DNA from: Halorussus marinus
Lineage (GTDB): Archaea > Halobacteriota > Halobacteria > Halobacteriales > Haladaptataceae
Direction: 5' to 3'
DNA: 64,000 bases
Assembly: GCF_004765795.1 (NCBI RefSeq)
Contig: NZ_SBIV01000001.1
Coordinates: 434,001-498,000 of the forward strand
Shown here: piece after piece, positions 25,839-46,182 of the stretch
Layout: the number at the start of each line of letters is the position of its first letter
Numbering within the stretch: position 1 is the first letter of the stretch
The notes under the pieces: generated by a model
Told to the model about the DNA's origin: nothing
Database searches by the model: none
What the model saw: only the letters and a program-made list of their open reading frames with translations
Position numbers and translations under genes: made by a program

Positions 25839-26477
25839 TCAGCGTTCTACGGTCAGGCCTCTCGCGAGGGTGGCGATCATCTCCTCTTGGAGGTGATCGT
25901 AGATCCCGTTCTGAATCTCGGCGACGTTCGCGCTGATCTCGTCGTACTCGTCTTTGTGAAGGATCAACAACCCGAGCGCCGACCCCATGAGACCGAGGAC
26001 GGTGATCGGCTCCATCTCCGCGATCGGACCGTCGCTACGGGCCTGAATCTCCGCGACAGGGGGGATCAGCACGTTCATCTCCTTTTTTTCTATCTCGGCG
26101 AGCTGATCCGACGAGATGTCCCCGAGGACCTCCCGGTAGTCCTGTTTGATGAAGACTTCCTGAATGAACTCGTTTCCCTCGCCGAACTCCACGTAACAGC
26201 GGAAGAACCGTTCGAGGCGGTCCTGAGGATCGTCGATGGCCGCCAGTTCCGACTCCAGGGTCGTCGCGAACTCGTCTAGCTCCTGTTCGAAGATATCGAC
26301 GTACAGATCGGACTTGGCGTCGAAAAACTGGTAGAAGGTGGGTTTGGCGATCCCGACGGGGTCGGTGATGTCTTTGACGGTCGTTTTCGCGGGCCCGAAC
26401 TTCACCAACAGCTCGCGTGCGGTTTCGAGCAGTTCCTCCCGGATCCGCTCCCGTTCGTCGTCGCTGAACGATCGCAT
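25839..26477 (-). CDS. TetR/AcrR family transcriptional regulator
   Basis: TTVKDITDPVGIAKPTFYQFFDAKSDLY HTH; divergent from the ABC exporter. Confidence 0.9.
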   Translation of the reverse strand: MRSFSDDERERIREELLETARELLVKFGPAKTTVKDITDPVGIAKPTFYQFFDAKSDLYVDIFEQELDEFATTLESELAAIDDPQDRLERFFRCYVEFGEGNEFIQEVFIKQDYREVLGDISSDQLAEIEKKEMNVLIPPVAEIQARSDGPIAEMEPITVLGLMGSALGLLILHKDEYDEISANVAEIQNGIYDHLQEEMIATLARGLTVER

Positions 26478-26502
26478 GTCTCTGTCCACGGATCGAAAAC
26501 TC

Positions 26503-26557
26503 ATAACTAAATTGGTTTTCGGTTATTACCCCGTAACCAAAATAAATATTTAGTCAT
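26503..26557. promoter_or_regulatory. AT-rich divergent promoter with nested inverted repeats (candidate TetR operator)
   Basis: TTGGTT (26512-17) / AACCAA (26535-40), and ATAACTAAA (26503-11) / TTTAGTCAT (26549-57). Confidence 0.5.
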
Positions 26558-26574
26558 AGCGGGCACATTGGGGT

Positions 26575-27492
26575 ATGGCGACGATAGAGGTAAAAGATTT
26601 TACAAAAGAGTTCGGGAGCGTGCGTGCAGTCGACTCCATCTCGTTTACCGTCGAATCCGGGGAAGTGTTCGGATTCCTCGGTCCGAACGGGGCCGGCAAG
26701 ACGACGACGATCCGGTCGCTACTGGGCTTGCTCGAACCGACCGCCGGGACCGCGACCGTCCTCGGCGCAGACGTCCACGACGAGGACGCCCTCATCGAGG
26801 CGAAACGACGCATCGGCTACCTGCCCGCACACCTCGGGTTCGACGAGGAAGCGACGGGCGCCGAGGTGCTCGACTACCACGAGTCGGTCAAAGGCGGCTC
26901 GCGCCGGGACGAACTCCTCGAGATTTTCACCCCGCCGGTCGAGCGACCGATTCGGGAGTACTCGACCGGGAACAAGCGCATGCTCGGGATCGTTCAGGCG
27001 TTCATGCACGATCCGGACCTCGTGATCATGGACGAGCCGACCTCCGGTCTCGACCCGCTCAAACAGGAGGAGTTCAACGAGTTCGCCAGAAACGAGTGCG
27101 AGCGAGGCAAGACGCTGTTCTTTTCTTCCCACGTCCTGAGCGAGGTCCGACGCGTGTGCGACCGCGTCGGGATCCTCCGGGAGGGCGAACTCGTCGGTCT
27201 CGAAGACGTCGAGACGCTACTTCGACAGGGCGGCAAGCGGGTCCGACTCCAGACGACCGACGACGCCAGAACGGATCTCGAAGCGATCGAGGGGGCCCTC
27301 GACGTCCAGACGTTCGCCGAGGGGGTCCAGTTCATCTACACCGGGGAGTACAACGCGTTGCTCCGCGAACTGGCGACTCACGACGTTCGCGAAATCGAGA
27401 TCAGCGAACCGCCGCTCGAAGACATCTTCATGCACTACTACGGCGCGACCGATGCGGTCGAGTCCGACCGGGAGGTGCGAACCGATGTTTGA
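26575..27492 (+). CDS. ABC-2 type exporter ATP-binding protein
   Basis: GPNGAGKTT, YSTGN, IMDEPTSGLD, SSH. Confidence 0.93.
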   Translation: MATIEVKDFTKEFGSVRAVDSISFTVESGEVFGFLGPNGAGKTTTIRSLLGLLEPTAGTATVLGADVHDEDALIEAKRRIGYLPAHLGFDEEATGAEVLDYHESVKGGSRRDELLEIFTPPVERPIREYSTGNKRMLGIVQAFMHDPDLVIMDEPTSGLDPLKQEEFNEFARNECERGKTLFFSSHVLSEVRRVCDRVGILREGELVGLEDVETLLRQGGKRVRLQTTDDARTDLEAIEGALDVQTFAEGVQFIYTGEYNALLRELATHDVREIEISEPPLEDIFMHYYGATDAVESDREVRTDV

Positions 27493-28270
27493 GACCACCA
27501 AGTACGAGATGGGTCGTCGGATTCGCGGAACCGCGGTCCTGACCGTCGGCGTCAGCGCCTACGTGGCCTTCATCGTCTGGTACTTCTCGCTGTTGGACCC
27601 CTCGGCGTACGCACAGATCGCCGAGTCGCTGCCGCCGGCGATGCTGGACGCGTTCGGCATGCAGTCGATCGGCTCGATCGAGGGATGGCTCGGCGGACAG
27701 ATCTACACGTTCCTGTGGCTGTTGGGGCTCGGCGTATACTTCGCGTACGCGTCGGCGGGCGTGATCGCGAACGATATCGAGAGCGATCGGATGGACCTGT
27801 TGCTCTCGTTTCCGGTCTCCCGGCGGCGGTTGCTCACCGAGAAGTTCGCGTCGGTGCTTCTCCCGCTCGTCTCGCTGAACGTGGTCGTGGGGGCCGTGAC
27901 CTACGGTCTCGTGGTGGCGATCGGCGAGACGATCGATCCGATGCATCTCGCGGCGGCCCACCTCCTCTCGATCCCGTATCTGCTCGTGTGTGCGGCGATC
28001 GGGCTTGTTCTGTCCGTGGTGGTCGATCGGGCGGCGATCGCAGAACGGGCCGCCATCGGACTGGTGTTCGTGCTCTGGCTCGTCGAGTCGGCCGTCGGCG
28101 CGGCCGAAGACTTCGCGTGGATACAGAACCTCAGCCCGACTCACTACTACGCCCCCACGCCGATTCTCGTCGACGGGTCGTACGAACTGATCGACGCCGC
28201 CATTCTGCTCGCCGCGTTCCTGGGGCTACTCGTCGTGAGCCAACTCCTGTTCCAGCGCCGGGACATATAG
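27485..28270 (+). CDS. ABC-2 type exporter permease
   Basis: About 6 TM; DLLLSFPVSRRRLLTEK. Confidence 0.88.
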   Translation: MFETTKYEMGRRIRGTAVLTVGVSAYVAFIVWYFSLLDPSAYAQIAESLPPAMLDAFGMQSIGSIEGWLGGQIYTFLWLLGLGVYFAYASAGVIANDIESDRMDLLLSFPVSRRRLLTEKFASVLLPLVSLNVVVGAVTYGLVVAIGETIDPMHLAAAHLLSIPYLLVCAAIGLVLSVVVDRAAIAERAAIGLVFVLWLVESAVGAAEDFAWIQNLSPTHYYAPTPILVDGSYELIDAAILLAAFLGLLVVSQLLFQRRDI

Positions 28271-28402
28271 GACCCCCGACACCGGCGTCGCGGTGCCAGT
28301 TTAGTTTAGGAAATATTCAAGTGCGACTTTGCGCGACATCTCTCAAAGCACTCCTGTTGCAACTTCTGATGTTTGTAGCGGCCCGAACTCTGTCATCGGA
28401 AC

Positions 28403-28424
28403 TATTAATTGAAGAAACATTCAA
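28403..28424 (+). promoter_or_regulatory. TATA box plus ArsR-type operator
   Basis: TATTAA (28403-08) directly followed by TTGAA-N6-TTCAA (28409-24), 10 bp before the arsR ATG. Confidence 0.65.
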
Positions 28425-28434
28425 CCTAAGCGCG

Positions 28435-28836
28435 ATGGCACAATCGACCGAGCGCCTTCGGCGGTACCTCGAAGACGAACTCGGAGAGTGTCGTAGCGAG
28501 GACGTCGAGCGTCGGCTCGACGAACTCGGCACTCTCGAAGCGGCACTCGGAACAGCGCAGGTGGGAGCCGAACTCGACGTGCTGTCGGCGCTCTCGAACG
28601 AGACGCGCTACACGCTCGTCCGGGTCCTCGTCGGGGCCCGAGAGGAGCTCTGCGTCTGTGAACTGCACGCGGTCGTCGACGTGACCGAGAGCGGGCTGAG
28701 CCACGCCCTCTCGGCGCTGGTCGACGCCGGGCTCGTCGAGGGCCGAAAAGACGGCCGGTGGAAGAAGTACCGCGCGACCAACCGCGCGGTGGCGCTCGTC
28801 ACGGTTCTGGACGGGAGCGTGAGCCCCGATGAGTGA
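28435..28836 (+). CDS. arsR: ArsR/SmtB family repressor
   Basis: ELCVCEL arsenite-binding motif, SHALSAL, GRW..Y. Confidence 0.9.
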   Translation: MAQSTERLRRYLEDELGECRSEDVERRLDELGTLEAALGTAQVGAELDVLSALSNETRYTLVRVLVGAREELCVCELHAVVDVTESGLSHALSALVDAGLVEGRKDGRWKKYRATNRAVALVTVLDGSVSPDE

Positions 28837-29995
28837 CGTCGACGCCCACGACCACGGGCCGAACTGCGACTGTGAGAGCTGTGGGGACCCGCGGTCGATG
28901 GACTTTCTCGACAAGTATCTCACCGTCTGGATCTTCGGCGCGATGGCGATCGGCGTCGGCGTCGGCTTCCTCGCGCCGTCGGTGACCCAGCCGATCCAGC
29001 GCTTCAACCTCGTGGAGATCGGGCTCGTCCTGATGATGTATCCGCCACTGGCGAAGGCCGACTACTCCCGGCTCCGGGCGGTGTTCAGCAACTGGCGCGT
29101 GCTCGGGCTGAGCCTGATCCAGAACTGGCTCATCGGCCCGACGCTGATGTTCGGGCTCGCGGTCGTCTTCTTCGGCGGCGTCGTGCCCGGTCTGCCGGCC
29201 CGCCCGGAGTACTTCCTCGGGCTCGTGTTCATCGGAATGGCCCGGTGTATCGCGATGGTCTTGGTGTGGAACGAGCTCGCGGAGGGCTCGACCGAGTACG
29301 TGACCGGGCTGGTCGCGTTCAACAGCCTCTTCCAGATCGTCACGTACGGCGTGTACGTCTGGTTCTTCGGGCTCGTGCTCCCGCCGCTACTGGGCATGGA
29401 GTCGCTCGTCGACGGGATCACGGCCTTCGACATCACGCCGATGCAGGTGTTCGAGGCCATCGTGGTCTTTCTCGGGATCCCGTTCGCCGCGGGCTTTCTC
29501 AGCCGCTACCTCGGCACCCGCCTCAGAAGCGAAACGTGGTACGACGAGGAGTTCGTCCCGAAGATCGATCCCCTGACGCTGATCGCGTTGTTGTTCACGG
29601 TGATCGTGATGTTCGCCACGCAGGGCGAGAACATCGTCGCGGCGCCGGGCGACGTCTTGCTGATCGCGGTGCCGCTGACGATCTACTTCGTCGTGATGTT
29701 TCTGGTGAGCTTCGGGATGGGCAAGGGGATCGGCGCGGACTACTCGACGACGACCGCGATCGGCTTCACCGCCGCCTCGAACAACTTCGAACTCGCGATC
29801 GCGGTCGCGGTCGCGGTGTTCGGGGTCGGTTCGGGCGTCGCGTTCACGACCGTCGTCGGCCCGCTGATCGAGGTCCCGGTGTTGCTCGCGCTGGTCCACG
29901 TCGCGCTCTACTTCCAGCGGCGGTTCGACTGGACCGGCGCCGCGACCGGACAGCTCGGCCCCTCCGTTTCGGGGTCGGCCGCCGAAGACGACTGA
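28829..29995 (+). CDS. acr3: ACR3 family arsenite efflux transporter
   Basis: LDKYLTVWI, MMYPPLAK, ARCIAMVLVWN, ASNNFELAIAVA, GPLIEVP. Confidence 0.95.
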   Translation: MSDVDAHDHGPNCDCESCGDPRSMDFLDKYLTVWIFGAMAIGVGVGFLAPSVTQPIQRFNLVEIGLVLMMYPPLAKADYSRLRAVFSNWRVLGLSLIQNWLIGPTLMFGLAVVFFGGVVPGLPARPEYFLGLVFIGMARCIAMVLVWNELAEGSTEYVTGLVAFNSLFQIVTYGVYVWFFGLVLPPLLGMESLVDGITAFDITPMQVFEAIVVFLGIPFAAGFLSRYLGTRLRSETWYDEEFVPKIDPLTLIALLFTVIVMFATQGENIVAAPGDVLLIAVPLTIYFVVMFLVSFGMGKGIGADYSTTTAIGFTAASNNFELAIAVAVAVFGVGSGVAFTTVVGPLIEVPVLLALVHVALYFQRRFDWTGAATGQLGPSVSGSAAEDD

Positions 29996-30121
29996 GCGCG
30001 CTCCGATTCCGCATGGACGGGTCGACGCCGCCGGTCCGATTCGTCTCGCGTTCGGCCGGGACGAACGGGCCAGATAGACGGCGTCCTCGGTTGAGAGTCC
30101 GCAATTGGTTCGCCGGTTCGC

Positions 30122-30322
30122 TCAATTGCGCGGTGGGTCTCTCTCAGAAGTGACAAACAGAACGACGAGTGCCAGTCCAAAAGACGTCGCCGACAGCGGT
30201 TTCCAGTTTCCCGTCTCCCCGACGTGGTACGTGGCTACACAGACTGCTAAAATTCCCGCCAGGGATACGGCAACCTCTACTTTCTCGTCGACGACGAGTT
30301 TCGGTACTGAGCCCTCACTCAT
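30122..30322 (-). CDS. Small hypothetical 2-TM protein in a lower-GC tract
   Basis: MSEGSVPKLVVDEKVEVAVSLAGILAVCVA...FGLALVVLFV; AT-rich TATA-like stretch about 25-30 bp upstream. Confidence 0.45.
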   Translation of the reverse strand: MSEGSVPKLVVDEKVEVAVSLAGILAVCVATYHVGETGNWKPLSATSFGLALVVLFVTSERDPPRN

Positions 30323-30752
30323 GATAGACGACATTAACAAATTAAATTATAACTATTGTGTTTTTCAGCAGGGAGTGTCACGTTCACACTGCACACCAAA
30401 CGATTCACGCTCTGGATTGCTCGGCGACTGTTCGGAGTTGCTTCTTAGCTGGCGTCTTCGGCAAGGGCCGAAGCCCGCTGAGCCAGAAGATACCCGAATT
30501 CTAGGCGGGAGTAAGCGTGCGAACTGACGAAGTCTCTCCTCCGACTATCTGAACTGCTCGAACTGTTTTCTATATAGCAAAATACGATTTACTTGTTCGC
30601 TTCGGATCGGACGCCCGCGCCACAACGGTAACATCTCCGATACTAATTGCGTGAATACGAGGCGATGGCCGCGATCGCGGCTCCCGGACTGATATACCCA
30701 CGCACTTGCACATAGAAAGGCATTAATCCGCGCTGTCTGTACAGATGAGTGA

Positions 30753-32864
30753 ATGAGTCTCTCCGAGCCAGACCGCGAACTGGTCGTCGCCGAACTCGGC
30801 CGGGAGCCGACCCCGGCGGAGGCGGCCCTGTTCGAGAACCTCTGGAGCGAACACTGCGCGTACCGGTCCTCGCGACCCCTGCTCTCGGCGTTCGACTCCG
30901 AGGGCGAGCGGGTCGTCGTCGGTCCCGGCGACGACGCCGCGGTCGTGGAAGTCGCCGACGGCACGTACATCACGATGGGCGTCGAGAGCCACAACCACCC
31001 GTCGTTCGTCGACCCCTACGACGGCGCGGCGACCGGGGTCGGCGGCATCGTCCGCGACACCCTCTCGATGGGTGCGTACCCGATCGCGCTCGCGGACTCG
31101 CTTTACTTCGGCGACTTCGACCGCGAGCACTCCCGGTACCTGCTGGAGGGCGTCGTGGAGGGTATCAGCGACTACGGCAACTCGATCGGCGTTCCGACGG
31201 TTGCGGGCTCCACGGCGTTCCACCCCGACTACGAGGGCAATCCGCTGGTCAACGTCGCCTGCGTGGGACTGCTCGACGACGAGCGGCTGGTCACCGCCGA
31301 CGCGAAGTCGCCGGGCAACAAGCTCGTGCTCGTCGGGAACGCGACCGGCCGGGACGGTCTCGGCGGCGCGAGCTTCGCCAGCGAGGACCTCTCGGAGGAC
31401 GCCGAGACCGAAGACCGGCCCGCGGTGCAGGTCGGCGACCCCTACACCGAGAAACTGCTGGTGGAGGCCAACGAGGCGCTACTCGACGAGTCGCTCGTCG
31501 AGGCGGCCCGCGACCTCGGGGCGGCCGGGCTCGGCGGAGCGTCCTCCGAGATGGTCGCGAAGGGCGGACTCGGCTGTGAGATCGCGCTCGAACGGGTCCA
31601 CCAGCGCGAGCCCAACATGAACGCGCTCGAAATCCTACTCGCCGAGTCCCAAGAGCGGATGTGCTACGAGGTCCGCCCGGAGAACGTCGAGGCGGTCGAG
31701 CGCGTCGCCGAGAAGTACGATCTGGGCTGTTCGGTCATCGGCGACGTCACCGAGGGCAACTACGTCTGTACCTTCGAGGACGAGGTCGTCGTCGACGCGC
31801 CACCGGAGTTCCTCGCCGACGGCGCGCCGATGAACGACCTGCCCGCCACAGAGCCCGCAGGGCCAGAGCGCGATCTGCCCGACCCCGACCTCGAATCGGC
31901 GTTCGAGGCGGTGGTCGAGAGCCCGAACACCGCGAGCAAGCGGTGGGTCTACCGCCAGTACGACCACGAGGTACAGGTCCGGACCGCGACGCCGCCCGGC
32001 GACGACGCGGCGGTGTTGGCGCTCCGGGACGCCGAGAAGGGGCTGGCGTTCGCTTCGGGCGCCGACCCCAACTGGACGGCGGCCGCGCCCTACGACGGTG
32101 CCCGGGCGATCGCGCTCGAAAACGCCACCAACCTCGCGGCGAAGGGTGCGACGCCGCTCGCGGCAGTCGACTGCCTCAACGGCGGCAACCCCGAGAAGCC
32201 CGAGGTGTACGGCGGCTTCGAGGGCATCGTCGACGGCCTCGCCGACATGTGCCGCGAGCTCTCTGTGCCCGTCGTGGGCGGCAACGTCTCGCTGTACAAC
32301 GACTCGCCGTCGGGACCGATCCCGCCGACCCCGACGCTCGCGATGACCGGCACCAAAGCCGGGTACGATGCGCCGCCCGCCGCCCTCTCCGGTGAGGGCA
32401 CGCTCCTCGTCGTCGGCGCGGACGGAGGCTCGGGGCTCGGGGGCTCGGAGTACCTCGCGCAGGTCGGCGGAAGCGACCGGTTCCCCGAACTGCCCGCGAA
32501 TCCCGGCGAGGTCGTCTCCGCGCTCGCGGCGGTGGCCGACGCCCCCGAGACGCTCGCGGTCCACGACGTGAGCCACGGCGGGCTCGCGGTCGCGCTCGCC
32601 GAGATGGTGACCGACTCGGCCGGCGCGAGCGCCGAGGTCGAGACCGTCGAGGCGCTGTTCGCCGAGACGCCGGGCCGGGCCGTCGTCGAGACCACCGCGC
32701 CGGACGCGGTCCGCGAGGCGTTCGACGGCGTGGCGCCCGTGGCTGAACTCGGCGAGGCCGACGGCTCGGGGACGCTGGAACTGTCGGTCGGCGACGAGAC
32801 GCTGTCGTACGATGCGGCCGAGATCGCGACGCTCCGGGACGTGCTCGGGCGCGAACTGGCCTGA
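30753..32864 (+). CDS. purL: Phosphoribosylformylglycinamidine synthase subunit PurL
   Basis: [45 protein letters not shown]. Confidence 0.97.
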
Positions 32865-36724: not shown

Positions 36725-36796
36725 CGAACATGTCACGGTGTGACGAACACGTTCCGGAGCGTCCCGAGTAGCTGAGAACGTGGTTTCCGGTTAAAG
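36725..36796 (+). promoter_or_regulatory. Promoter region of the molybdoenzyme operon with CGAA-N4-TTCG-like sites
   Basis: CGAACATGTCAC (36725-36), GTCAC-N3-GTGAC (36732-44), CGAACACGTTCC (36744-55), TTAAAG (36791-96). Confidence 0.5.
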
Positions 36797-36867: not shown

Positions 36868-39800
36868 GTGAGCCTCTCGCGACGCGACTTCATCAGGGGC
36901 GCGGGAGCGGGCGCGGTCGGCTCGCTACTCACCAGCGGGTGGGGCGCGACCCAGAGCATCGACCCCGTGACCGAGGTCGACAACCCCCTGCGGGGCTACC
37001 CCAACCGCGACTGGGAACAGGTGTACCACGACATCTACGCGTACGACGACGTCGACTGGACGGTGTGTCACCCCAACTGCACCCAGTCGTGTGCGCTCAA
37101 CTTCTACATGAAAAACGGGATCCCGATCAGGGCCGAGCAGGTCTACCACAACGAGGAGTCGAGCGTCGGCCCGTCGGGCTACGAGGACGCGGATGTCAGC
37201 CAGAACTGGAACCCCCGCGGGTGCATGAAGGGGCTGACGCTCCACCGCCGGACCTTCGAACCCAGTCGCATCAAGTACCCGATGGTCCGGAAAGGGTGGG
37301 ACCCCGACGACCCCAACCCGGAGGGCCGCGGCGAGGACGAGTTCGAGCGGGTCTCGTGGGACGAGGCGATCGATCTGGTCGCCGAGAAGATGGCGAGCCT
37401 CGACGACCGCAAACGGTTCCACATCTTCAACGCGATCAAGGCCGACGGGCTCATCACCCGCCACGGCGCTGGCCGGCGCCTCGCCTCCATCTTCGGGGGC
37501 TGTGAGTGGACCGAGTACGACTGGTACGCCGACCTGCCGCCGGGCCACGTCATCACGACGGGCTACCAGACCTCCGACGCCGACGCCGCCGACTGGCGCA
37601 AGGCCGACTACACCATCATCCAGGGCAAGAACCTCATCCACAACAAGCTCGCGGACAACCACTGGTTCCAGGAGATGCGCGAGCGCGGCGGCGAGATGGT
37701 CGGCATCTACCCCGACTACTCGCCGACCGTCCAGAAGTGCGACCGGTGGCTCCCCATCCGGCCGGGGTCGGACCCCGCGATCCCGCTCGGGTTCGCCCAC
37801 GTCATCATCAGCGAGGAGCTGTACGACCCCGACTTCGTGCGGAAGTTCACCAGCCTGCCCCTGCTGGTGCGGGCGGACGACGACAAGTACCTCCGGGCCC
37901 ACGAGGTGTTCGACGACCACGAGGCTCCCCCGGAGGACAGCCACGAACGCCACGAGAACGACGACTGGGGCGACTTCGTGGTCCTCGACCAGAACGGCGA
38001 CCCCGTCGCGGTCACCCGCGAGCAGGTCGGCGACGAGATGCCGGCGACGCCCCGACTCGACGCCGAGACCGAGCTCCGACTCGCCGACGGGTCGACGGTC
38101 GCGGTCGAGACCGACTTCTCGCGCCAGAAGCGCAACGTGCTGGAGAGCTACTCGCCCGAGCAGGTCGAGGAGATCACGACGGTCCCGGCCGACGCGATCC
38201 GGAAGACGGCGCGGGAGTTCGCCGATGCCGAGAACGGCCAGTGGTTCACCGGCGAGGGCATCAACCACTGGTTCCACGGTAACTCCGAGCTCCAGCGCTC
38301 GATCTTCTTCGTCCAGTCGATGCTCGGGAACGTCGGCAAGCCGGGGTCGGGCTACTACAACTACTCCGGCCAGTACAAGATCGAACTCCTCGACGGCTAC
38401 CCCGAGTACGTCAACCCCGACGGTCACGCGGCCCACGGGATGTACCCGGGGTACGCCTTCGCGTTCTTCGGCGGCGAGCAGTTGGACCCCCACGAGATCC
38501 GGGGCGATTTCGACCGGGAACTAGATCTCGTTCCGCAGGGCGACGCCGAGGAGCCGGTGATGCCGGAGGGGGCCGAGACGTACACGATGTCCAAGCCCAC
38601 CGTGTTGTGGACGATGAACTGCAACCTCCTGAACCAGACCAAACATCAGGAGCACGTCGTCAACAACTTCGTCAAGCACCCCGAGACCGAGAACGAGCTG
38701 TTCGTCGTCTCGGACATGCACATGACCTACTCGGCCCGCCACGCCGACGTCGTGTTCCCGGCGCCGTCGTGGCTGGAGTGTGAGTACCCCGACATCACCA
38801 TCGGGCCCGAGAACCCCTTCATCACGATGGACCACGGCGTGATGGACCCCATCTACGACACCAAACAGGACGGGGAGGTGCTCGCGCTTGTCGCCGAGAA
38901 GCTCGACGAGAAGATTCCGCCCGAGGAGCGCACCGTCGACTCGTACCGCTCGTACTTCGAGAAGTTCCTCGACGACGACGAGGACGTCTGCGATTACATC
39001 CAACAGACCCTCGATGCGGGGATCACCACTCAGGACATCGACGTCGAGGACCTCGAAGACGGGCCCGAGCGTCTGAATCTCAAGACCTACCCGCGGGTTC
39101 CGTTCTACTCGCAGGTGCACGACGATCGGCCCTTCTACACCAAGACCGGCCGGATGGAGTTCCACAAGGAGGAAGACCGGTTCGTGGACCTCGGACGCGG
39201 CGACCTCGACCACATCGAGAGCGTCGAGGGGACGCCATACGGCGTCAACGAGAAGTGGCCCGAGGCCGGCGAACAGGAGAATCCCCTCTACCACGACGAG
39301 GGCTACCAGTTCTACTACAACACGCCCCACAGCAAGTACCGGACTCACTCCTCGTGGGGGATGACCGACTGGAACCTGATCTGGTCGGCGCGGGACTTCG
39401 GGTCCACCAGCGCCGACCCCGAGGGCACCGAGCGACTCGTCGACGACTTCTCGTTCCCCGAAGGCGACGGCCAGACCAGCGACGCGCCGCCGCTCGGCGA
39501 GGCGTTCGTCGAGATTCATCCGAGCGACGCCGAGGACATCGGCGTGGAGAACGGCGACTACGTGCGCATCTCGGGCAAGCGCGGCGGGACGGTGGTCCGG
39601 GCGATGCTCAGCGAGCGCCAGCGCCCCGGGAAGGCGGGCGACATGGGACAGTTGACCCTCTGGCACGGCTGGTGGCCCCAGCACTTCCCGGACGACGAGG
39701 AGAAGGGCGACGACGAGGTCAAGGGGTTCAACACGACGACCAACATCTGGCTCGACCCCGGCCAAGAGACCGACGACCTCGTCCACAAGGCGGTGTTCGG

Positions 39801-40071
39801 CGACCCGAACGTCTCCGAGGAGGTCGGCGAGGAGATCGCGTGGCACGGCGCGGAACTCGAACACGGCTACGAGGAGACCGTCTGGGCCCCGACGGGCGTG
39901 AACCGCGACGACCTCGTGACCGTCGAGAAGTACGAGGAGGCCGACTGGTGGCCCGGCGACGCTCGGAAGGACGACCTCGTCGAGGACTACATCGGCGGGT
40001 CGCTCCAGTCGAAGGGCGGCGGGAGCGCGACGACCGACAGCGGCGGAACGACCACGCGAGGTGACGACTGA
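36868..40071 (+). CDS. Tat-exported type II DMSO-reductase-family molybdoenzyme alpha subunit (NxrA/NarG-like)
   Basis: SRRDFIRG Tat signal, CHPNCTQSC...NPRGCMKG FS0 motif, YDWYADLPPG Asp Mo-ligand motif, TPHSKYRTHS; SD-like GAGGTGA before the GTG. Confidence 0.92.
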   Translation: MSLSRRDFIRGAGAGAVGSLLTSGWGATQSIDPVTEVDNPLRGYPNRDWEQVYHDIYAYDDVDWTVCHPNCTQSCALNFYMKNGIPIRAEQVYHNEESSVGPSGYEDADVSQNWNPRGCMKGLTLHRRTFEPSRIKYPMVRKGWDPDDPNPEGRGEDEFERVSWDEAIDLVAEKMASLDDRKRFHIFNAIKADGLITRHGAGRRLASIFGGCEWTEYDWYADLPPGHVITTGYQTSDADAADWRKADYTIIQGKNLIHNKLADNHWFQEMRERGGEMVGIYPDYSPTVQKCDRWLPIRPGSDPAIPLGFAHVIISEELYDPDFVRKFTSLPLLVRADDDKYLRAHEVFDDHEAPPEDSHERHENDDWGDFVVLDQNGDPVAVTREQVGDEMPATPRLDAETELRLADGSTVAVETDFSRQKRNVLESYSPEQVEEITTVPADAIRKTAREFADAENGQWFTGEGINHWFHGNSELQRSIFFVQSMLGNVGKPGSGYYNYSGQYKIELLDGYPEYVNPDGHAAHGMYPGYAFAFFGGEQLDPHEIRGDFDRELDLVPQGDAEEPVMPEGAETYTMSKPTVLWTMNCNLLNQTKHQEHVVNNFVKHPETENELFVVSDMHMTYSARHADVVFPAPSWLECEYPDITIGPENPFITMDHGVMDPIYDTKQDGEVLALVAEKLDEKIPPEERTVDSYRSYFEKFLDDDEDVCDYIQQTLDAGITTQDIDVEDLEDGPERLNLKTYPRVPFYSQVHDDRPFYTKTGRMEFHKEEDRFVDLGRGDLDHIESVEGTPYGVNEKWPEAGEQENPLYHDEGYQFYYNTPHSKYRTHSSWGMTDWNLIWSARDFGSTSADPEGTERLVDDFSFPEGDGQTSDAPPLGEAFVEIHPSDAEDIGVENGDYVRISGKRGGTVVRAMLSERQRPGKAGDMGQLTLWHGWWPQHFPDDEEKGDDEVKGFNTTTNIWLDPGQETDDLVHKAVFGDPNVSEEVGEEIAWHGAELEHGYEETVWAPTGVNRDDLVTVEKYEEADWWPGDARKDDLVEDYIGGSLQSKGGGSATTDSGGTTTRGDD

Positions 40072-41252
40072 TGGCTGACGTGTACAACCCACAACTCGGC
40101 CGCGAGCACAGCTACCCCTACGAGCACCGCGAGGAGGACCGCGACTGGCACTGGGGGATGGTCATCAACATCAACCGGTGTATCAACTGCAACACCTGCT
40201 CGTTTGCCTGCAAGTCGACGTGGACCAGCGGCGAGGGCGAGGAGTACATGTGGTGGATGAACGTCGAGACCGAGCCCTACGGCGGCTATCCGATGGGCTG
40301 GGACATGCGACTGCTCGACGATCTGGGCGCCGACGAGACCGTCTTCGAGGCGGCCGACGACGGCGAGCAGGTCGAGGGCTACGTCGCCCAGAAGGAGGCG
40401 TGGGAGTACCCCGCCCTCGGCGACGATCAGGTCCACGGCGAGTACCCAGAGGGCGAGGTCGTCGAGAGCGACCCCGAGGAGGGGACTTACCACGACATGT
40501 GGCAGTTCTACCTGCCCCGCCTGTGCAACCACTGCAAGAACCCGGCCTGCCTCGCGGCGTGCCCGCGGAAGGCGATCTACAAGCGCGAGGAGGACGGCAT
40601 CGTCCTGCTCGACCAGGAGCGGTGTCGGGGGTATCGCAAGTGCGTGAAGGCCTGTCCGTACCACAAGCCGATGTACAACCCCGAGACCGGCGTCTCCGAG
40701 AAGCCCGTCGGCTGTTTCCCGCGAATCGAGGAGGGAAACGTCCCCCGGTGTGTCTCCTCGTGTATCGGGAAGACCCGGCTCCACGGCAACATCAACCGCG
40801 GTCCCGACGCCGGTCGGCCCAACGGCGTGAAGTCGGCCGCGAGCGGCCGGAGCCCGGTGAACTATCTGGTCCACTCCGACGAGAAGATCGCGCTCCCGCT
40901 GTACCCGCAGTTCGGGACCCGACCGCAGGTGTTCTACATGCCGCCCTACCACGTCCCGCCGGAGTTCCTGACCCAGATGTTCACCCCGAACACCGAGACC
41001 AAGCGCAACGACTGGCCCGGCGACACCTACGAGGAGAGCGTCGAGATCGTCCAACAGCGCGTCCGGAACCCCAGCCACCACGTCCTCGGCATCCTCCAAC
41101 TGTTCGGCGCGACCACCCGGCTCATCGAGACGTACAACGTCAAGGAAAACCGGGTGAAGGGCTGGGACCGGAAGGGCAACAAGGTGGTCGACATGCCCAT
41201 CGAGGAGGACCTCGAGGTGCGCGAGGGCGAACAGTGGACGAACCAACCGTGA
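40071..41252 (+). CDS. Fe-S beta subunit (NxrB/NarH-like)
   Basis: CINCNTCSFAC, CNHCKNPACLAAC, CRGYRKCVKAC, KPVGC...CVSSC; EYMWWMNVET.PYGGYP. Confidence 0.93.
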   Translation: MADVYNPQLGREHSYPYEHREEDRDWHWGMVININRCINCNTCSFACKSTWTSGEGEEYMWWMNVETEPYGGYPMGWDMRLLDDLGADETVFEAADDGEQVEGYVAQKEAWEYPALGDDQVHGEYPEGEVVESDPEEGTYHDMWQFYLPRLCNHCKNPACLAACPRKAIYKREEDGIVLLDQERCRGYRKCVKACPYHKPMYNPETGVSEKPVGCFPRIEEGNVPRCVSSCIGKTRLHGNINRGPDAGRPNGVKSAASGRSPVNYLVHSDEKIALPLYPQFGTRPQVFYMPPYHVPPEFLTQMFTPNTETKRNDWPGDTYEESVEIVQQRVRNPSHHVLGILQLFGATTRLIETYNVKENRVKGWDRKGNKVVDMPIEEDLEVREGEQWTNQP

Positions 41253-41262
41253 GGCGCCAGTC

Positions 41263-42006
41263 ATGGACGACACACCACCCGCGGAACGACACGCCGCCCG
41301 GGCCGCCCTCTACAGCGCCGCGGCGGGGGCGTTTTGCTACCCGGACGAGAGCACCGTGCGCGAACTGACCCACCCCGACGCCGCCGAGGGGATCAGGTCG
41401 GCCGCCGAGACGCTCGGCTTCGAGGCCGAGGCCGAGGCGGTGGTCGACGCGCTCGATCGGACCGACCGCGAGGCGCTCGAATCTGCGTACAACGGGCTGT
41501 TCGGACTGCCGACCGACGACGGCACCTACCCCGTCGTCCCCTACGAGGTCGAGTACACGGTCGGCGACGAGGTCGGCCGCCAACAGCGCCGGATCGCCAC
41601 CGTGGTCGGCCTGCTGGAGGCGTTCGGCGTCGAGCCCGCCGAGGAGTTCGACGAGCGCCACGACCACGTCGTCGTGGAACTCGAACTCGCGCAGGTGCTT
41701 GCGGCCCGCCGGGCGGTCGCCGCCGAGGAGGGCGACCGCGAGACGGCCGACAACCTCGAAGGCGCGGAAGCGACCGTCCTCGACGAGCATCTCACGGACT
41801 TCGTGCCGGCGTTCGCCCACGCGGTCCGGAACGCGACCGCCGATCCCGACGCCGAGGACGCGTCCGACCGAGTCGACGCCGGCGAGGCCGCCGAACTGGT
41901 CTACCGGGCGGCCGCGGACCTCGCCGAGGCGCTCGTGACGTGGGACGCCGGAATCCACCCCGAGCCGACGGTCGAGCCCGAGACGGAGGTGCGCTCGCAT
42001 GCCTGA
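41263..42006 (+). CDS. TorD/DmsD/NarJ-type maturation chaperone
   Basis: YNGLF...VVPYEVEY, EFDERHDHVVVELE, DEHL.DF motifs; operon position. Confidence 0.85.
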   Translation: MDDTPPAERHAARAALYSAAAGAFCYPDESTVRELTHPDAAEGIRSAAETLGFEAEAEAVVDALDRTDREALESAYNGLFGLPTDDGTYPVVPYEVEYTVGDEVGRQQRRIATVVGLLEAFGVEPAEEFDERHDHVVVELELAQVLAARRAVAAEEGDRETADNLEGAEATVLDEHLTDFVPAFAHAVRNATADPDAEDASDRVDAGEAAELVYRAAADLAEALVTWDAGIHPEPTVEPETEVRSHA

Positions 42007-43003
42007 CCGGACCGCGGCGGTGCGCGCGACCGTCGTGACGGCGGTCGTGCTCGCGGCGCTCGTCGTCGGTCAGGCCGCGGTCGGAGCCGCGGTCACGAGC
42101 GGCTCCCAGCCGGTGCGGGCCGTCGAGTCGGTGCCCGGGGATCCGGCCGCCGACGCGTGGACCGACGCACCCGAGCGCACCGTCTCGCTGTCCGAACAGC
42201 AGATGGCGGTGCCGTTCGGGGGCGGGAGCGTCGAGGAGCTGACCGTCCAGACGGTCCGCAACGACACCCACACCGCGTTCCGGCTGTCGTGGGCCGACCC
42301 GACGAGGGACGCGAACATCGACCGGCCGCGCAACTTCAGCGACGCCGCCGCGATCATGCTCCGGAGCGGCGACAAGCCGCCGATCACGATGGGGGCGGCC
42401 GGCAAGCCGGTCGACATCTGGTACTGGCGCGCGAGCTGGCAGGCCGCCGAGACCGGCGACTCGGGGTCGATGTACGCCTACCCGCACCCGGACAACGAGA
42501 CCAAGCCCGGCCGGGCGGCGGGCAACCCCCTCTCGAACGCCGAGTACGACCGGTACGCCCAGAACTACTACGCGACCGGCTACGGCTCGCTGACCCACGC
42601 GCCCGCCCAGAACGTCCGGGCGAACGGCGAGCGCACCGAGGACGGCTGGTCGGTCGCGTTCGTCCGCGAGCACTCGACCGACGGCGAGTACGACCCCGAC
42701 TTCGCGAGCGCCGACAACGTCTATCTCGCGTTCGCGGTGTGGAACGGGAGCGCCGACGAGGTCAACGGCGAGAAGTCGCTCACCCTCCGGTTCACCCAGC
42801 TCGACACCGAGAACTGGGAGCTGAGCGACGCGTCGACCGGGTCGAGCGGCGCCGACGACGGCGGCGACTCCGCGAGCGCCGAGAGCGACACCTCGGGCGA
42901 GGAGGGGTCGTGGCTCACCGAGTCGGTGAGCAACTGGGTGGTCGGTCTCGTGGCGACGATGCTGCTCACATGGTCGTTCGTCTACTGGAGGGCCAGAGAA
43001 TGA
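41999..43003 (+). CDS. Heme b gamma subunit (ethylbenzene dehydrogenase gamma / EB_dh-like), membrane-anchored
   Basis: N-terminal hydrophobic segment, LSWAD, FSDAAA, ITMG, DIWYWRA, AFAVWNG...NGEKS, C-terminal TM. Confidence 0.85.
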   Translation: MPDRTAAVRATVVTAVVLAALVVGQAAVGAAVTSGSQPVRAVESVPGDPAADAWTDAPERTVSLSEQQMAVPFGGGSVEELTVQTVRNDTHTAFRLSWADPTRDANIDRPRNFSDAAAIMLRSGDKPPITMGAAGKPVDIWYWRASWQAAETGDSGSMYAYPHPDNETKPGRAAGNPLSNAEYDRYAQNYYATGYGSLTHAPAQNVRANGERTEDGWSVAFVREHSTDGEYDPDFASADNVYLAFAVWNGSADEVNGEKSLTLRFTQLDTENWELSDASTGSSGADDGGDSASAESDTSGEEGSWLTESVSNWVVGLVATMLLTWSFVYWRARE

Positions 43004-43872
43004 CCGAGTACGCGAATCGGAGCGCCCGGGCTCACGCCCCGGCCGACGACGAGGCCGACCTCCGGAGCCTGCTCGCGTCGCCCCGCGAACCCGAGCGCCG
43101 CGACGCCGCGCTCGCGCTGGTCGACCGCGCCGACGAGGCGGGAATAGACGAGGCGACGATCGGGGCGCTCGCCGAACGGGTCCGGACCGACGACTCGACC
43201 GACGTCCGGCAGTTCGCGGTCGAGGCCCTCGGGGCCGGCGGGCCCGCCCAGCGGGCTGAGCGGGCGATCCGAGCCGCGCTCGACCGCGACGGCGACAAGT
43301 GGGTCCGGGCGGAGGCGGTCGTCGCGCTCTCGCGGGTCGCGCCCGACGACGGGGCATCCCTGCGGGCGGCGCTCGACGACGACAGCGGCTTCGTCCGCCG
43401 GAACGCGGTCATCGCGCTCGGCAAGACCGGCGCCGGGACCGACGAGACGTTCGCCGACCGGCTCAAGAACGATCCCCACCCGGCGGTCCGGGAGTACGCC
43501 GCGCAGTTCCTCGGGCGCACCGCCGACGACGTCCCGGAGGCGGTCCGACTGCTGGCCGCGATTCTCGCCCGCGAGCCCGAGGCGTTCGTCCGGGCGAAGG
43601 CCGCCGACGCGCTCGGAGAGCTCGGCACCGACCGCGCCGAGCAAGCCATCGAGACCCACGGCCTCACCGACCGGAGCGACGACGTGCGCCGGGCGGCCGA
43701 GACCGCGCTCGCGGCGGCCCGTGGCGTCGATCCCGACCACCTCGACGTCGACGTCGAGGAGCCGTCGCCGCCGGGCGGCGGCCCCCAGTCGCCCCGAGAG
43801 ACGCCGAAGGGCGGGCCGTCGCCCGAGCCCAAGGGACCCGGCCCGAGTCGGGAGTTCGAGTTCGACAGGTGA
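43000..43872 (+). CDS. HEAT/PBS-lyase repeat protein
   Basis: Repeated VRxxAxxAL(G) units. Confidence 0.88.
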   Translation: MTEYANRSARAHAPADDEADLRSLLASPREPERRDAALALVDRADEAGIDEATIGALAERVRTDDSTDVRQFAVEALGAGGPAQRAERAIRAALDRDGDKWVRAEAVVALSRVAPDDGASLRAALDDDSGFVRRNAVIALGKTGAGTDETFADRLKNDPHPAVREYAAQFLGRTADDVPEAVRLLAAILAREPEAFVRAKAADALGELGTDRAEQAIETHGLTDRSDDVRRAAETALAAARGVDPDHLDVDVEEPSPPGGGPQSPRETPKGGPSPEPKGPGPSREFEFDR

Positions 43873-43876
43873 TTCC

Positions 43877-44455
43877 ATGACCGGACAGACCAGATCGACA
43901 GATTCGAGCGGCACCGACGGAGAATCGCTGGGCGTAAGCGTCCCTGACGAGCACGTCGGGGCGTTCGTCGCCGAGGCGTTCGAGGACGTCGAGCGCGACA
44001 CGACGTGGAAGGAGGTCGTGGGCGCGCTCGTGGCCGAGGAGGCCCGCGACGCGTGGGCGGACCTCTCGCGAACCGAGCAGGCCGTGGAGGTGCTCGCCGC
44101 CGCGGCCGACTACGACGAGCGGGCGGTCGAGCTGTTGGCCGAGGTGCCGACCGACCGCGGCGAGCCGACCTCGGAGATCCGCGACCGCTACGAGGAGGCG
44201 CTCCGGTGTCGGCACAACGCCGACCGCTTCCGGGACGGCATCGCGGCGGCGTACGCCGACGGCTACCTCGCCGACGACCAGCTGGTGGCCGCTGTCGAGG
44301 CGTTCGGCTTCGATACCGCACTCATCGCCGAGCGCGAGGACGAACTCGACACCGTCGCCAACACCTACGAGTTCGAGTTCCGCCCGTACGGCGGGACGCT
44401 GATGACCGACGACGAGGGGGACGACCAGACGATGGACGGCTTCGAGGCGTGGTAA
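43877..44455 (+). CDS. Hypothetical acidic helical protein
   Basis: Tightly coupled within the operon (4 bp and 1 bp gaps); C-terminal FRPYGGTL. Confidence 0.75.
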   Translation: MTGQTRSTDSSGTDGESLGVSVPDEHVGAFVAEAFEDVERDTTWKEVVGALVAEEARDAWADLSRTEQAVEVLAAAADYDERAVELLAEVPTDRGEPTSEIRDRYEEALRCRHNADRFRDGIAAAYADGYLADDQLVAAVEAFGFDTALIAEREDELDTVANTYEFEFRPYGGTLMTDDEGDDQTMDGFEAW

Positions 44456-44456
44456 C

Positions 44457-45713
44457 ATGACTGAAGAACTCACCGAGCGCGTCAGGGAGGCGATCGCGAC
44501 CGTCGACGATCCAGATCTGGGGACGAGCGTGGTCGAGACGGGGCTCGTGACCGACGTGTCGGTCGCCGACGCGACCGCGACCGTCCGCGTCGAGTTCGCG
44601 GGCGCGGACCCCGGAGACGCCGAGGAGGTCGTCGAGGAGGTCCGGAGCGCGGCCTTCGAGGTCGCGGGCGTCGAGCGCGTCCGCGTCGAGGGCGACACCC
44701 CCGAGCCAGAGAGCGAGGGGGACGCGACCGGCGCGCTCGACGGCGTCGAGCAGGTGCTCGCGGTGATGAGCGCGAAGGGCGGGGTCGGAAAGACGACCGT
44801 GGCGACCCACCTCGCCCGCGCGCTGGCCGACGACTACGACGTGGGGCTGTTCGACGCCGACATCCACGGCCCGAACGTCCCCGAGATGCTCGGGATCGAG
44901 GGGCCCGCGCAGGCGACCGACGACGGGCTCGCCGCGCCGACGGAGGTCGACGGCATCGAGGCGATGAGCGTCGGACTGCTCGCCGGCGACGAGCCCCTTG
45001 CGTGGCGGGGCGCGATGGCCCACGACGCGCTCACCGAGCTCCTCGAAGACACCGCCTGGAGCGACCGCGACGTGCTGGTGGTCGACATGCCGCCCGGCAC
45101 GGGCGACGTGGCGCTCACGATGCTTCAGGAGGTGGCGGTCGCCGGCGTCGTCCTCGTGAGCACGCCGTTCCCGACCAGCCTGTCGGACACGGCCCGGAGC
45201 GCCGCGCTGGTCGAGGAGAACGGCGTCCCGGTCGTCGGGGCCGCGATCAACATGCGCGGGTTCGAGTGCGAGGCGTGCGGTCACCGCCACGACCTCTACG
45301 GCGGGGACGACCCCGAGTCGGAGCTCGGCGTGCCCGTGCTGGCCGAACTCCCGTTCGACCGGTCGCTCCAGCGCCCCGACGACGCCGCGGCGCCCGACCC
45401 GATCGCGGCGCTCGCCGAGGGGGTCGCCGACCACCTCGAATCGACCGAGGCGGGCGGCGTCTCGGTCCCGGACTCCGCGCTCGACGTCCGGGGACTGCCC
45501 CCGCAGGTGCGCCACGAGCAGGTGGGCGCGGAGTTCCGCGCGCTCGACCCCGGAGAGGCCTTCTACGTGGTGAACGACCACGACCCCTCGCCGCTCGCGG
45601 AGCTCCTGGCCGGGGAGGTCGCGGACGGGTCGGCCGACGAGGCCTTCGACACCTGCGAGGTCCACCGCCGCGGCCCCGACGAGTGGGTGCTCGAAGTCGA
45701 ACGCCCCTCGTAG
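44457..45713 (+). CDS. Mrp/NBP35 Fe-S carrier ATPase with N-terminal DUF59-like and C-terminal DUF2249-like domains
   Basis: VDDPDLG...V, SAKGGVGKTT, DADIHGP, DMPPGTGD, CEAC, LDVRGLPP..RH...VNDHDP.PL. Confidence 0.88.
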   Translation: MTEELTERVREAIATVDDPDLGTSVVETGLVTDVSVADATATVRVEFAGADPGDAEEVVEEVRSAAFEVAGVERVRVEGDTPEPESEGDATGALDGVEQVLAVMSAKGGVGKTTVATHLARALADDYDVGLFDADIHGPNVPEMLGIEGPAQATDDGLAAPTEVDGIEAMSVGLLAGDEPLAWRGAMAHDALTELLEDTAWSDRDVLVVDMPPGTGDVALTMLQEVAVAGVVLVSTPFPTSLSDTARSAALVEENGVPVVGAAINMRGFECEACGHRHDLYGGDDPESELGVPVLAELPFDRSLQRPDDAAAPDPIAALAEGVADHLESTEAGGVSVPDSALDVRGLPPQVRHEQVGAEFRALDPGEAFYVVNDHDPSPLAELLAGEVADGSADEAFDTCEVHRRGPDEWVLEVERPS

Positions 45714-45723
45714 CCCCCGATCC

Positions 45724-46182
45724 ATGCGCGCCAGCGACGACGCGTCCGGGACGGAGTCGGTCACGGTGATCGGCGACGCCGCGGTCTCGGTCCCGTCCGA
45801 CCCCCGGCGGGTCGGCGACGACACCCGAGTCGCGACCCGCGAGTGGTCGTTCCGATGTGCCTCCGGCGACGAGATCGCGGGCCCGTGGTCGGGGATCGCG
45901 CTGGACGAGCTACTCGCGGCCGCCGACCCGCCCGACGCGACGACGCATCTCGCGGTCGAGGGCGAGGACGGCTACCGGGCCTGCGTCCCTATCGCGGACG
46001 CGCTCGACGGCCTGCTCGCGTACCGCCGCGCGGGCGCCGCCTGCGGGGGCGCGCCGCGATTCCTCGCGCCCGGCGTCTCCGGAGTCCGGACGGTCAAGCG
46101 GGTCGCCCGGATCGAGGCGCTCGAACTCCCGGCCGGAGCCGACCCCGAGGACCGCGAGGCGCTGGTGCTCGCCGAGAAGTAG
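45724..46182 (+). CDS. Molybdopterin-binding-domain-like ('pterin cluster') protein
   Basis: FRCASG...WSGIAL.ELL...DGY...PRF...R.VK.V resembles a truncated sulfite-oxidase Moco domain. Confidence 0.7.
   Translation: MRASDDASGTESVTVIGDAAVSVPSDPRRVGDDTRVATREWSFRCASGDEIAGPWSGIALDELLAAADPPDATTHLAVEGEDGYRACVPIADALDGLLAYRRAGAACGGAPRFLAPGVSGVRTVKRVARIEALELPAGADPEDREALVLAEK

Follow-up and report, generated by a model that had tools for sequence, protein, structure and literature searches.

The closest solved relative of the system described here is the nitrite oxidoreductase (NXR-ABC) of Kuenenia stuttgartiensis (PDB 7B04; PMC8387239), which has an alpha subunit exported by twin-arginine translocation (Tat), an Asp ligand to molybdenum and a gamma subunit binding haem b through Met and Lys. 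Asn70 is the proposed substrate ligand in both NXR and nitrate reductase (NAR), whilst EbdA has an Ile at this position; the FS0 cluster is ligated by three Cys and one Asp in NXR, and by three Cys and one His in NAR (PMC8387239). The clade of Nitrotoga NXR and Hydrogenobacter NAR is likewise periplasmic and branches on the NXR side. It includes archaea and, amongst its members, a nitrite oxidiser as well as an enzyme proven to reduce nitrate (PMC6050957); Nitrotoga NXR is ~40% identical to anammox NxrA (PMC8387239). In haloarchaea, the canonical enzyme is pNar (NarABC-GH; TIGR03479), described from Haloferax mediterranei, also an outward-facing Tat enzyme. A review lists seven species, Natrinema altunense and Natrinema versiforme among them, that show anaerobic growth with nitrate although they lack NarGH, and raises the question of which molybdoenzyme serves them (PMC8400030).

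We analysed a window of 64,000 nucleotides from Halorussus marinus (NZ_SBIV01000001.1, positions 434,001 to 498,000), in which eight open reading frames (ORFs) lie on the + strand at 36868–46182, with neighbours spaced −8 to +10 bp apart (Table 1). An earlier note, made from the DNA alone, had described them as a tightly packed, complete operon for an NXR-like, outward-facing molybdoenzyme without Rieske and cytochrome b genes. The packing is as described, the motifs it quoted are present in the translations, and neither Rieske nor cytochrome b genes occur among the ORFs of the operon or their Pfam and NCBIfam matches. From its promoter, its co-occurrence with denitrification genes and the reported phenotype of Natrinema, the operon probably encodes a second respiratory nitrate reductase.

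The likeness to NXR, until now based on motifs, holds on alignment: 7B04 is the top solved structure for the alpha, beta and gamma subunits alike. Alpha scores 452 bits against 7B04, compared with 268 for PcrA, 187–192 for NarG and 160 for EbdA; beta scores 284 bits, compared with 198 for PcrB, 191 for NarH and 175 for a further structure; and gamma scores 84 bits, compared with 50 for EbdC. The enzyme is of type II, faces outwards and belongs with the NXR branch of its family, which supports the earlier note in this respect. Against TIGR03479, alpha reaches 426 bits (cut-off 984.75); it is 28–29% identical to canonical haloarchaeal NarG and 32% identical to P0168, our stand-in for anammox NxrA (2386 bits to 7B04 over its length), and groups in a 90% cluster with Halorussus proteins. 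A homologue search returned 23 proteins at 75–92% identity and one partial sequence, haloarchaeal wherever named, followed by Thermincola sp. (43%), Obscuribacterales (37–39%) and NXR-like proteins (30–34%). Against 1.84 billion 50% representatives, the top four clusters were haloarchaeal, Thermincola, Obscuribacterales and one other protein. Within the class Halobacteria, the lineage is present in 34/401 genomes and 13/91 genera.

In the main tree of alpha (IQ-TREE, LG+G4; 55 rows hand-picked from several hundred, 858 columns), the haloarchaeal lineage stands on its own stem (100/100) as sister to Thermincola and Obscuribacterales (98/96). The NXR-side clade (100/100) consists of the lineage, these sisters, one further protein, and a 22-row clade (100/100) containing P0168, outside which the lineage falls, also with the mixture model; canonical haloarchaeal NarG clusters with NarG, ClrA and Ebd-like rows (100/100). 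The same placement was obtained with FastTree on 105 rows and with a mixture model applied to a 34-row subset of the 55, where support for the sister branch is 91. Approximately unbiased (AU) tests rejected joining the lineage to haloarchaeal NarG (p=2e-62) and to a nine-row anammox-type group (p=7e-5), both groupings having been defined after the trees were seen. Named Nitrospira, Nitrospina, Nitrotoga and Hydrogenobacter sequences are not among the rows, nor are PcrA and SerA among the labelled ones; beta was placed by BLAST and PDB ranks. Putative stand-ins for the Nitrotoga/Hydrogenobacter clade (P0290, P0541 and L090; 37–41% identical to anammox NxrA) belong to the 22-row clade, from which this enzyme is absent. 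ClrA and the Ebd-like rows fall in another clade and the PcrA and EbdA scores lie far below that of NXR, which separates the enzyme from the Pcr/Clr/Ser/Ebd group. Nesting of alpha within haloarchaeal NarG, an outcome that the earlier note had set as refuting its reading, was not observed, and the suggested NXR/NAR intermediate is not borne out, the trees giving a separate deep lineage instead. Judged by these trees, the enzyme is a deep lineage of its own on the NXR side, apart from canonical NarG and from anammox-type NXR.

The NXR-side clade also contains a third haloarchaeal type II enzyme of ~1180 amino acids with an Asp-type FS0, represented by L090 and L072 (Natrinema thermotolerans and Natronococcus occultus) and matched at 235–260 bits in many genomes of the class. 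The assignment of this type (1180–1250 amino acids) to bacterial NarG was ruled out by the position of L090 inside the clade. It may correspond to the 'longer Natrialbaceae NarG' of PMC8400030.

The active site of alpha is that of the type II (Asp-ligated) dimethyl sulphoxide reductase family. D222 aligns with Asp275 of 7B04, is invariant in 20/20 aligned sequences and lies in the pattern Y-4x-D-11x-Q; N70 aligns with Asn70 of Kuenenia NXR, with which alpha also shares a Tyr at the position of PcrA W461. The set N70, Y217, D222, Q234 and N466 is common to NarG and anammox NxrA, and is not preserved in ClrA, an EbdA-like row or haloarchaeal DmsA. All four FS0 ligands are Cys, where Kuenenia NXR has three Cys and an Asp and pNar has a His; a four-Cys FS0 is also found in some NXR-side proteins from metagenome-assembled genomes and in haloarchaeal DmsA. 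The operon thus has a Tat alpha, an exported haem b gamma and a substrate-facing Asn, as expected of a periplasmic NXR, and lacks the Asp-ligated FS0; of the hallmarks of canonical pNarG, narABC in the operon, a His-ligated FS0 and a Glu at the gate (here Tyr) are all missing. The molybdenum loop YDWYADLPPG is, as the earlier note observed, the same as in NarG (near-identical in H. mediterranei pNar), but similar loops occur in other NXR-side proteins; the loop is probably ancestral, therefore, and no sign of an intermediate. An AlphaFold model of alpha (20-row alignment) had a predicted local distance difference test score (pLDDT) of 44.9 and was not used.

In beta, the family motif K-C-x-x-C is replaced by K-P-x-G-C, with Pro212 at the position of a cluster-ligating Cys. 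The Pro is present in 32/32 members of the lineage, whereas Cys occupies the position in 37/37 other betas that fit the search pattern, and the sister loci L099 and L100 retain it (K-C-I-G-C). This replacement would leave beta with a second three-ligand cluster. M131 and K259 of gamma align with the haem b ligands Met155 and Lys305 of NXR-C; unlike the Kuenenia protein, gamma has a C-terminal hydrophobic segment, which recurs in the 29/29 orthologues listed. A four-cluster beta, a Met/Lys haem b gamma and a dedicated chaperone are all as in other type II enzymes, one beta ligand being Pro.

Upstream of alpha lie two promoter boxes and an AT-rich element (Table 1), and the same layout of box 1 and box 2 precedes nirK of this genome. 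The core of box 1 is known from the nir, nor, nos and nar promoters of H. mediterranei, where its mutation significantly lowered nos and nor activity and non-significantly lowered that of nir (PMC10062603); in the operon, the CGAAYATDKTYG box of the haloarchaeal denitrification regulon keeps a fixed place ahead of alpha. Of 33 promoters, 23 have CGAA-N4-TTCG at −135 to −93 when one mismatch is allowed, and 10 have it exactly, the interval having been picked after a first look at the sites and L021, which has no upstream DNA, being omitted. The background among ORFs of the genome is 81/2391 (3.4%) with at most one mismatch and 6/2391 exact; shuffles gave a mean of 0.41, and other windows 3, 0, 2 and 1 of 33. 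Box 2, of which we found no description in the available parts of the promoter literature searched, is present in 28/33 promoters at two mismatches or fewer, compared with 7, 4 and 4 of 33 in control windows. A 54-bp matrix anchored on both boxes was built from 30 orthologous promoters, leaving out the window, L020, L021 and L031. It has 16 matches above 14 bits in the genome, amongst which this operon ranks first (35.7 bits), nirK second (34.8), qnor third (26.9), a multicopper oxidase sixth and the halocyanin of the nir-nor cluster ninth. The three dms upstream regions examined have single one-mismatch matches to box 1 and no box 2. These promoters suggest that the operon sits within the denitrification regulon.

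The layout of two boxes and TATA element is common to nirK, qnor, the halocyanin and the multicopper oxidase, with sites near 386425, 388866 and 392952 on contig C3, 302830 on C5 and 744705 on C1; the fourth-ranked matrix site (C1) precedes a further gene. A composite two-box pattern, written with the site in the window in view, matched only the operon and qnor and is not relied on.

The host genome (99.97% complete) has three PF00384 genes, namely this alpha, a canonical NarG on contig C8 and a 711-amino-acid frame under the NasA cut-off. The search for a separate narGH that the earlier note had called for found that on C8, where NarG (1373 bits to TIGR03479; 86% identical to H. mediterranei NarG) lies with narA, Rieske and cytochrome b genes. 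The genes nirK and qnor stand together on C3; neither NosZ nor RuBisCO was found in the genome, which by the latter criterion is not that of an autotroph, and tblastn detected no DmsA or Cld orthologue in it. qNor is present in 34/34 carriers of the lineage, compared with 215/401 genomes of the class, and a NirK-like gene in 31/34 (the class-wide comparison covers qNor only). Canonical NarG accompanies the operon in 19/34 carriers and the third NXR-side type in 2/34, whilst 13/34 have neither, so that this enzyme is the sole one of Nar/NXR type found there; 11 of these 13 show no DmsA-level match either. In 13/33 loci, nirK, qnor, a gene with a haem d1 domain or a canonical nar cluster lies within 10 kb of the operon; an overlapping set of 13/34 carriers has a nitrogen-oxide gene within 15 kb (from hand-copied coordinates). 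In five Halosimplex loci (L015, L016, L022, L024 and L025) the operon stands head-to-head with the narABC cluster. N. altunense and N. versiforme, the two compared here out of the seven species, both carry the operon. Their molybdenum/tungsten-bis(pyranopterin guanine dinucleotide) enzyme genes comprise, besides this one, NasA and DmsA in the former, and NasA and two Fdh-like genes in the latter.

The Thermincola sp. and Obscuribacterales alphas (P0025/P0235 and P0026–P0033) are 37–43% identical to ours and share its four-Cys FS0, E216 and molybdenum loop. Unlike the haloarchaeal operons, two metagenomic loci of this bacterial branch, L099:2557-14387 and L100:2526-14479, have a Rieske/cytochrome b/octahaem module directly upstream of alpha. 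They begin with ferredoxin and Rieske genes, continue with a split cytochrome b and the octahaem cytochrome c, and end with alpha, beta and additional subunits. We count this module, and the lack of RuBisCO in the host genome, in favour of nitrate reduction. Although the earlier note had left substrate and direction open, the promoter, co-occurrence and Natrinema phenotype point to nitrate reduction.

If so, low oxygen together with nitrogen oxides would induce the operon, and the chaperone and Mrp protein, perhaps with the HEAT and 192-amino-acid proteins, would insert molybdenum-bis(molybdopterin guanine dinucleotide) and the Fe-S clusters. Alpha–beta would then be exported by Tat and dock on the membrane-tethered gamma, with electrons from the menaquinol pool reaching molybdenum by way of haem b, the clusters of beta, and FS0, so that nitrate would be reduced to nitrite on the outer side of the membrane. 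The nitrite would then be taken on to nitrous oxide (N2O), the predicted endpoint in this genome, by NirK and qNor. The quinol-to-haem b step is not encoded in the operon, and may be carried out in trans by a bc complex and halocyanin, by an NrfD-type protein, or by direct quinol oxidation at gamma; a membrane-anchored NarM co-purified with Pyrobaculum NarGH (PMC4683180), so that an enzyme independent of a bc complex would not be the first of its kind. In carriers with NarABC-GH (19/34, this genome included), the operon would provide a differently regulated isoenzyme. Two NrfD-type genes each were found in the four genomes tested amongst G401, G402, G405, G372 and G280, and none in the host genome.

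Several observations weigh against nitrate reduction. E463, N259 and Y503 are NXR-type residues, and the gate residue E216, restricted to the haloarchaeal lineage and its Thermincola/Obscuribacterales sisters, corresponds to Phe in NarG and Asn in NxrA. Conservation of the box is highest in the nir, nor and nos promoters, and its mutation was without effect on the nar promoter (PMC10062603); the canonical narA promoter of this genome is not among the 16 matrix matches, and a regulon of the nir/nor class answers equally to nitrite, nitric oxide (NO) and nitrate. In 10/33 promoters, including all five of Natrinema, where box 2 is retained, and both of Natrialba, box 1 does not occur where expected; it has decayed in the genera with the strongest phenotype argument. 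The Natrinema phenotype is itself second-hand, and those genomes also have the assimilatory NasA. Redundancy with NarG in 19/34 carriers makes a different job possible, alpha is split in 2/34, and the carriers are mutually related, so that the counts overstate their independence. A NarC-like cytochrome b was not found in 10/34 carriers at E 1e-30, nor a bc-type cytochrome b (PF00033) in 5/5 tested (G401, G402, G405, G372 and G280), which poses a problem for electron donation. Alpha was seen in two frames in L033, G041 and G108, as a pseudogene or through assembly error.

These points leave some weight with the reading that the enzyme is a reversible NXR, mainly oxidising nitrite in the cell under micro-oxic nitrite stress for detoxification or extra energy, with electrons passing from haem b through halocyanin to a terminal oxidase or NirK; we regard this reading as unlikely. 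Kuenenia NXR works in both directions (PMC8387239) and detoxifying nitrite oxidation has been proposed for related clades (PMC6050957). NXR is moreover the nearest solved structure for all three subunits and several pocket residues are NXR-type, but the lineage falls outside the anammox-type group (AU p=7e-5) and is without its Asp-ligated FS0. A promoter of the class of nirK and qnor, not narA, fits nitrite oxidation, and this role would account for the redundancy with NarG (19/34) and the missing bc complex (10 carriers), yet it leaves the anaerobic nitrate growth of two Natrinema species unexplained, and a Rieske/cytochrome b module accompanies the sister loci. In addition to qNor, three genes for haem-copper oxidase subunit I were found in the genome, whereas RuBisCO was not; the three-Cys beta cluster could raise a potential. 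Nitrite oxidation nonetheless requires an acceptor above +420 mV, and the potential of halocyanin is near +280 mV. That this is an archaeal enzyme for nitrite oxidation in vivo, which nitrite or NO would induce alongside nirK and qnor when oxygen is low, is on our reckoning quite improbable.

It is about as improbable that the enzyme reduces another oxyanion or oxide (chlorate, perchlorate, selenate, or an N- or S-oxide) under anoxia with nitrate as a side substrate. The gene order alpha-beta-delta-gamma is that of clrABDC, and a cld-linked alpha from an Alisedimentitalea plasmid matches at 376 bits, above canonical NarG (324–339), but ClrA and this cld-linked alpha are placed in other clades. 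Haloarchaeal NarGH does reduce (per)chlorate (PMC8301774). The all-Cys FS0 is common to haloarchaeal DmsA and E216 is lineage-specific, whereas the three dms upstream regions are without box 2 and the neighbours of the operon are nitrogen-oxide genes. Two true Cld proteins used as queries found no match in the genome or the 33 loci; its single PF06778 match, a 546-amino-acid frame with a counterpart in Haloferax volcanii, is presumably the haem-synthesis protein PitA. Less probable again is nitrate reduction without support of growth, as a redox valve or to supply nitrite, comparable with many Nap systems. In favour of it are the external active site, the lack of a proton-motive quinol oxidase in the operon, and a patchy occurrence (34/401) with some copies split; against it, the enzyme is the sole one of Nar/NXR type found in 13 carriers, and likewise in two species reported to grow on nitrate. 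Respiratory nitrate reduction is hence the reading we prefer.

No description of this lineage was found in the mainly open-access literature searched, figures excluded; it does not appear in the available parts of PMC11218638, PMC10100899, PMC9751292, PMC6650914, PMC7331816, PMC12942990 or bioRxiv 10.1101/2021.10.18.464844, and 'halo' is absent from the available main text of PMC6050957. Automated annotation already gives members the label 'nitrate reductase alpha subunit', and N. altunense AJ2 is tabulated in PMC11052009 as having narG and narH; the gene has thus been counted, yet not recognised as separate, and members of the lineage may sit hidden in wedges of published trees. By sequence, it is a haloarchaeal lineage of NXR-side nitrate/nitrite oxidoreductases, previously not set apart. 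If it reduces nitrate, it would answer the published question of nitrate respiration in N. altunense and N. versiforme, which lack NarGH (PMC8400030), and would give an extra entry of nitrate into N2O-producing denitrification in 13/401 haloarchaeal genomes in which no other Nar-type enzyme was found. If it oxidises nitrite, haloarchaea without a bc complex could oxidise or disproportionate nitrite, and cultured haloarchaea would be the first archaeal nitrite oxidisers. Anammox NXR cannot be expressed heterologously (PMC8387239); here a deep-branching relative of periplasmic NXR is found in organisms that are cultured, harmless and related to the tractable Haloferax. The four-Cys FS0 and the putative three-Cys beta cluster, both natural changes, would allow a direct test of how the Fe-S chain decides between nitrate reduction and nitrite oxidation.

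Table 1. Features of the operon and its promoter in the window (positions count from the first nucleotide of the window).
Feature	Position	Strand	Remarks
Promoter box 1, CGAA-N4-TTCC	36744..36755	+	Differs from the CGAA-N4-TTCG core at one position
Promoter box 2, inverted repeat of GTTCY-N9-RGAAC type	36761..36779	+	5 bp past box 1
AT-rich TATA-like element	36789..36796	+	Putative core promoter; similar position in orthologues, nirK and qnor
Alpha subunit, 1067 aa	36868..40071	+	PF00384/PF01568; Tat motif SRRDF
Alpha residues			FS0 ligands C67, C71, C75, C119; N70; Mo-ligand D222; gate positions E216, Y217, Y503
Beta subunit, 393 aa	40071..41252	+	Fer4_11; 14 cluster cysteines; without signal peptide
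Delta subunit, NarJ/TorD-type chaperone, 247 aa	41263..42006	+	PF02613 E=7e-20
Gamma subunit, 334 aa	41999..43003	+	PF09459; EbdC/NxrC-type haem b domain; N-terminal hydrophobic segment
HEAT-repeat protein, 290 aa	43000..43872	+	PF13646; homologue in canonical haloarchaeal nar clusters
Lineage-specific soluble acidic protein, 192 aa	43877..44455	+	No Pfam/NCBIfam family
DUF59-Mrp/ApbC-DUF2249 Fe-S carrier, 418 aa	44457..45713	+	PF01883-PF10609-PF10006 fusion; homologue in canonical nar cluster
Small pterin-domain protein, 152 aa	45724..46182	+	PF00174; variable member, 5/34 loci

All eight genes are adjacent in the window, as the earlier note stated, but its description of a complete eight-gene system applies less widely, with six genes conserved across loci. 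In the window and 33 related loci, four of which end early at contig ends, alpha is present in 34, beta in 33, delta, gamma and the HEAT gene in 32 each, and the gene for the 192-amino-acid protein in 30, compared with 22/34 for the Mrp gene. Delta scores 71 bits against TIGR03482, under the cut-off. Genes for gamma, a chaperone and HEAT, Mrp and pterin proteins occur in the canonical nar cluster of H. mediterranei too, and the HEAT, Mrp and pterin proteins are 42–47% identical to their homologues there; these three genes are therefore not distinctive of this operon, and were ruled out as the sign of a new system. The operon differs from that cluster in lacking Rieske and cytochrome b genes, in having delta before gamma and in its nirK-type promoter, and the only gene particular to it is that of the 192-amino-acid protein. 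The latter is predicted to be all-helical with a three-helix-bundle core (model pLDDT 84.6); a fold search gave generic helical bundles (best Z 7.9), with no Foldseek match at E 0.001 and no usable match in the Atlas.

The G+C content of the operon is 0.66–0.74; elsewhere in the window, that of 26001–32000 falls to 0.61–0.65, from ~0.70 around it. Amidohydrolase and aldehyde dehydrogenase genes upstream of the operon were considered as conserved neighbours and ruled out by the related loci. A ModA-like binding protein adjoins the operon in eight related loci, and a homologue (41%) lies ~26 kb upstream of it here, at ~10380–11290 of the window (G000:C1:444379-445290). In the five Halosimplex loci, a gene for an HTH_10/BAT regulator, a candidate regulator, stands between the operon and narABC.

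In Natrinema (L005:3102-4958, L018:3034-4878 and L033), the stretch immediately ahead of the operon holds a gene for a Tat haem d1 protein and, after it, two propeller genes, one for a radical SAM protein, and hemA. The protein, of a type present in 14/401 genomes of the class, matches the haem d1 domain PF02239 at E 1e-76 and, amongst solved structures, NirN and NirS with E values of 1e-40 to 1e-37. Its clade was set aside in PMC10999283 for want of cytochrome c, the available text of which makes no mention of a copper domain. The Natrinema protein has a lipobox-like Cys and a cupredoxin domain with a CuA-like C-x3-C-x3-H-x2-M motif, and this copper domain could replace haem c.

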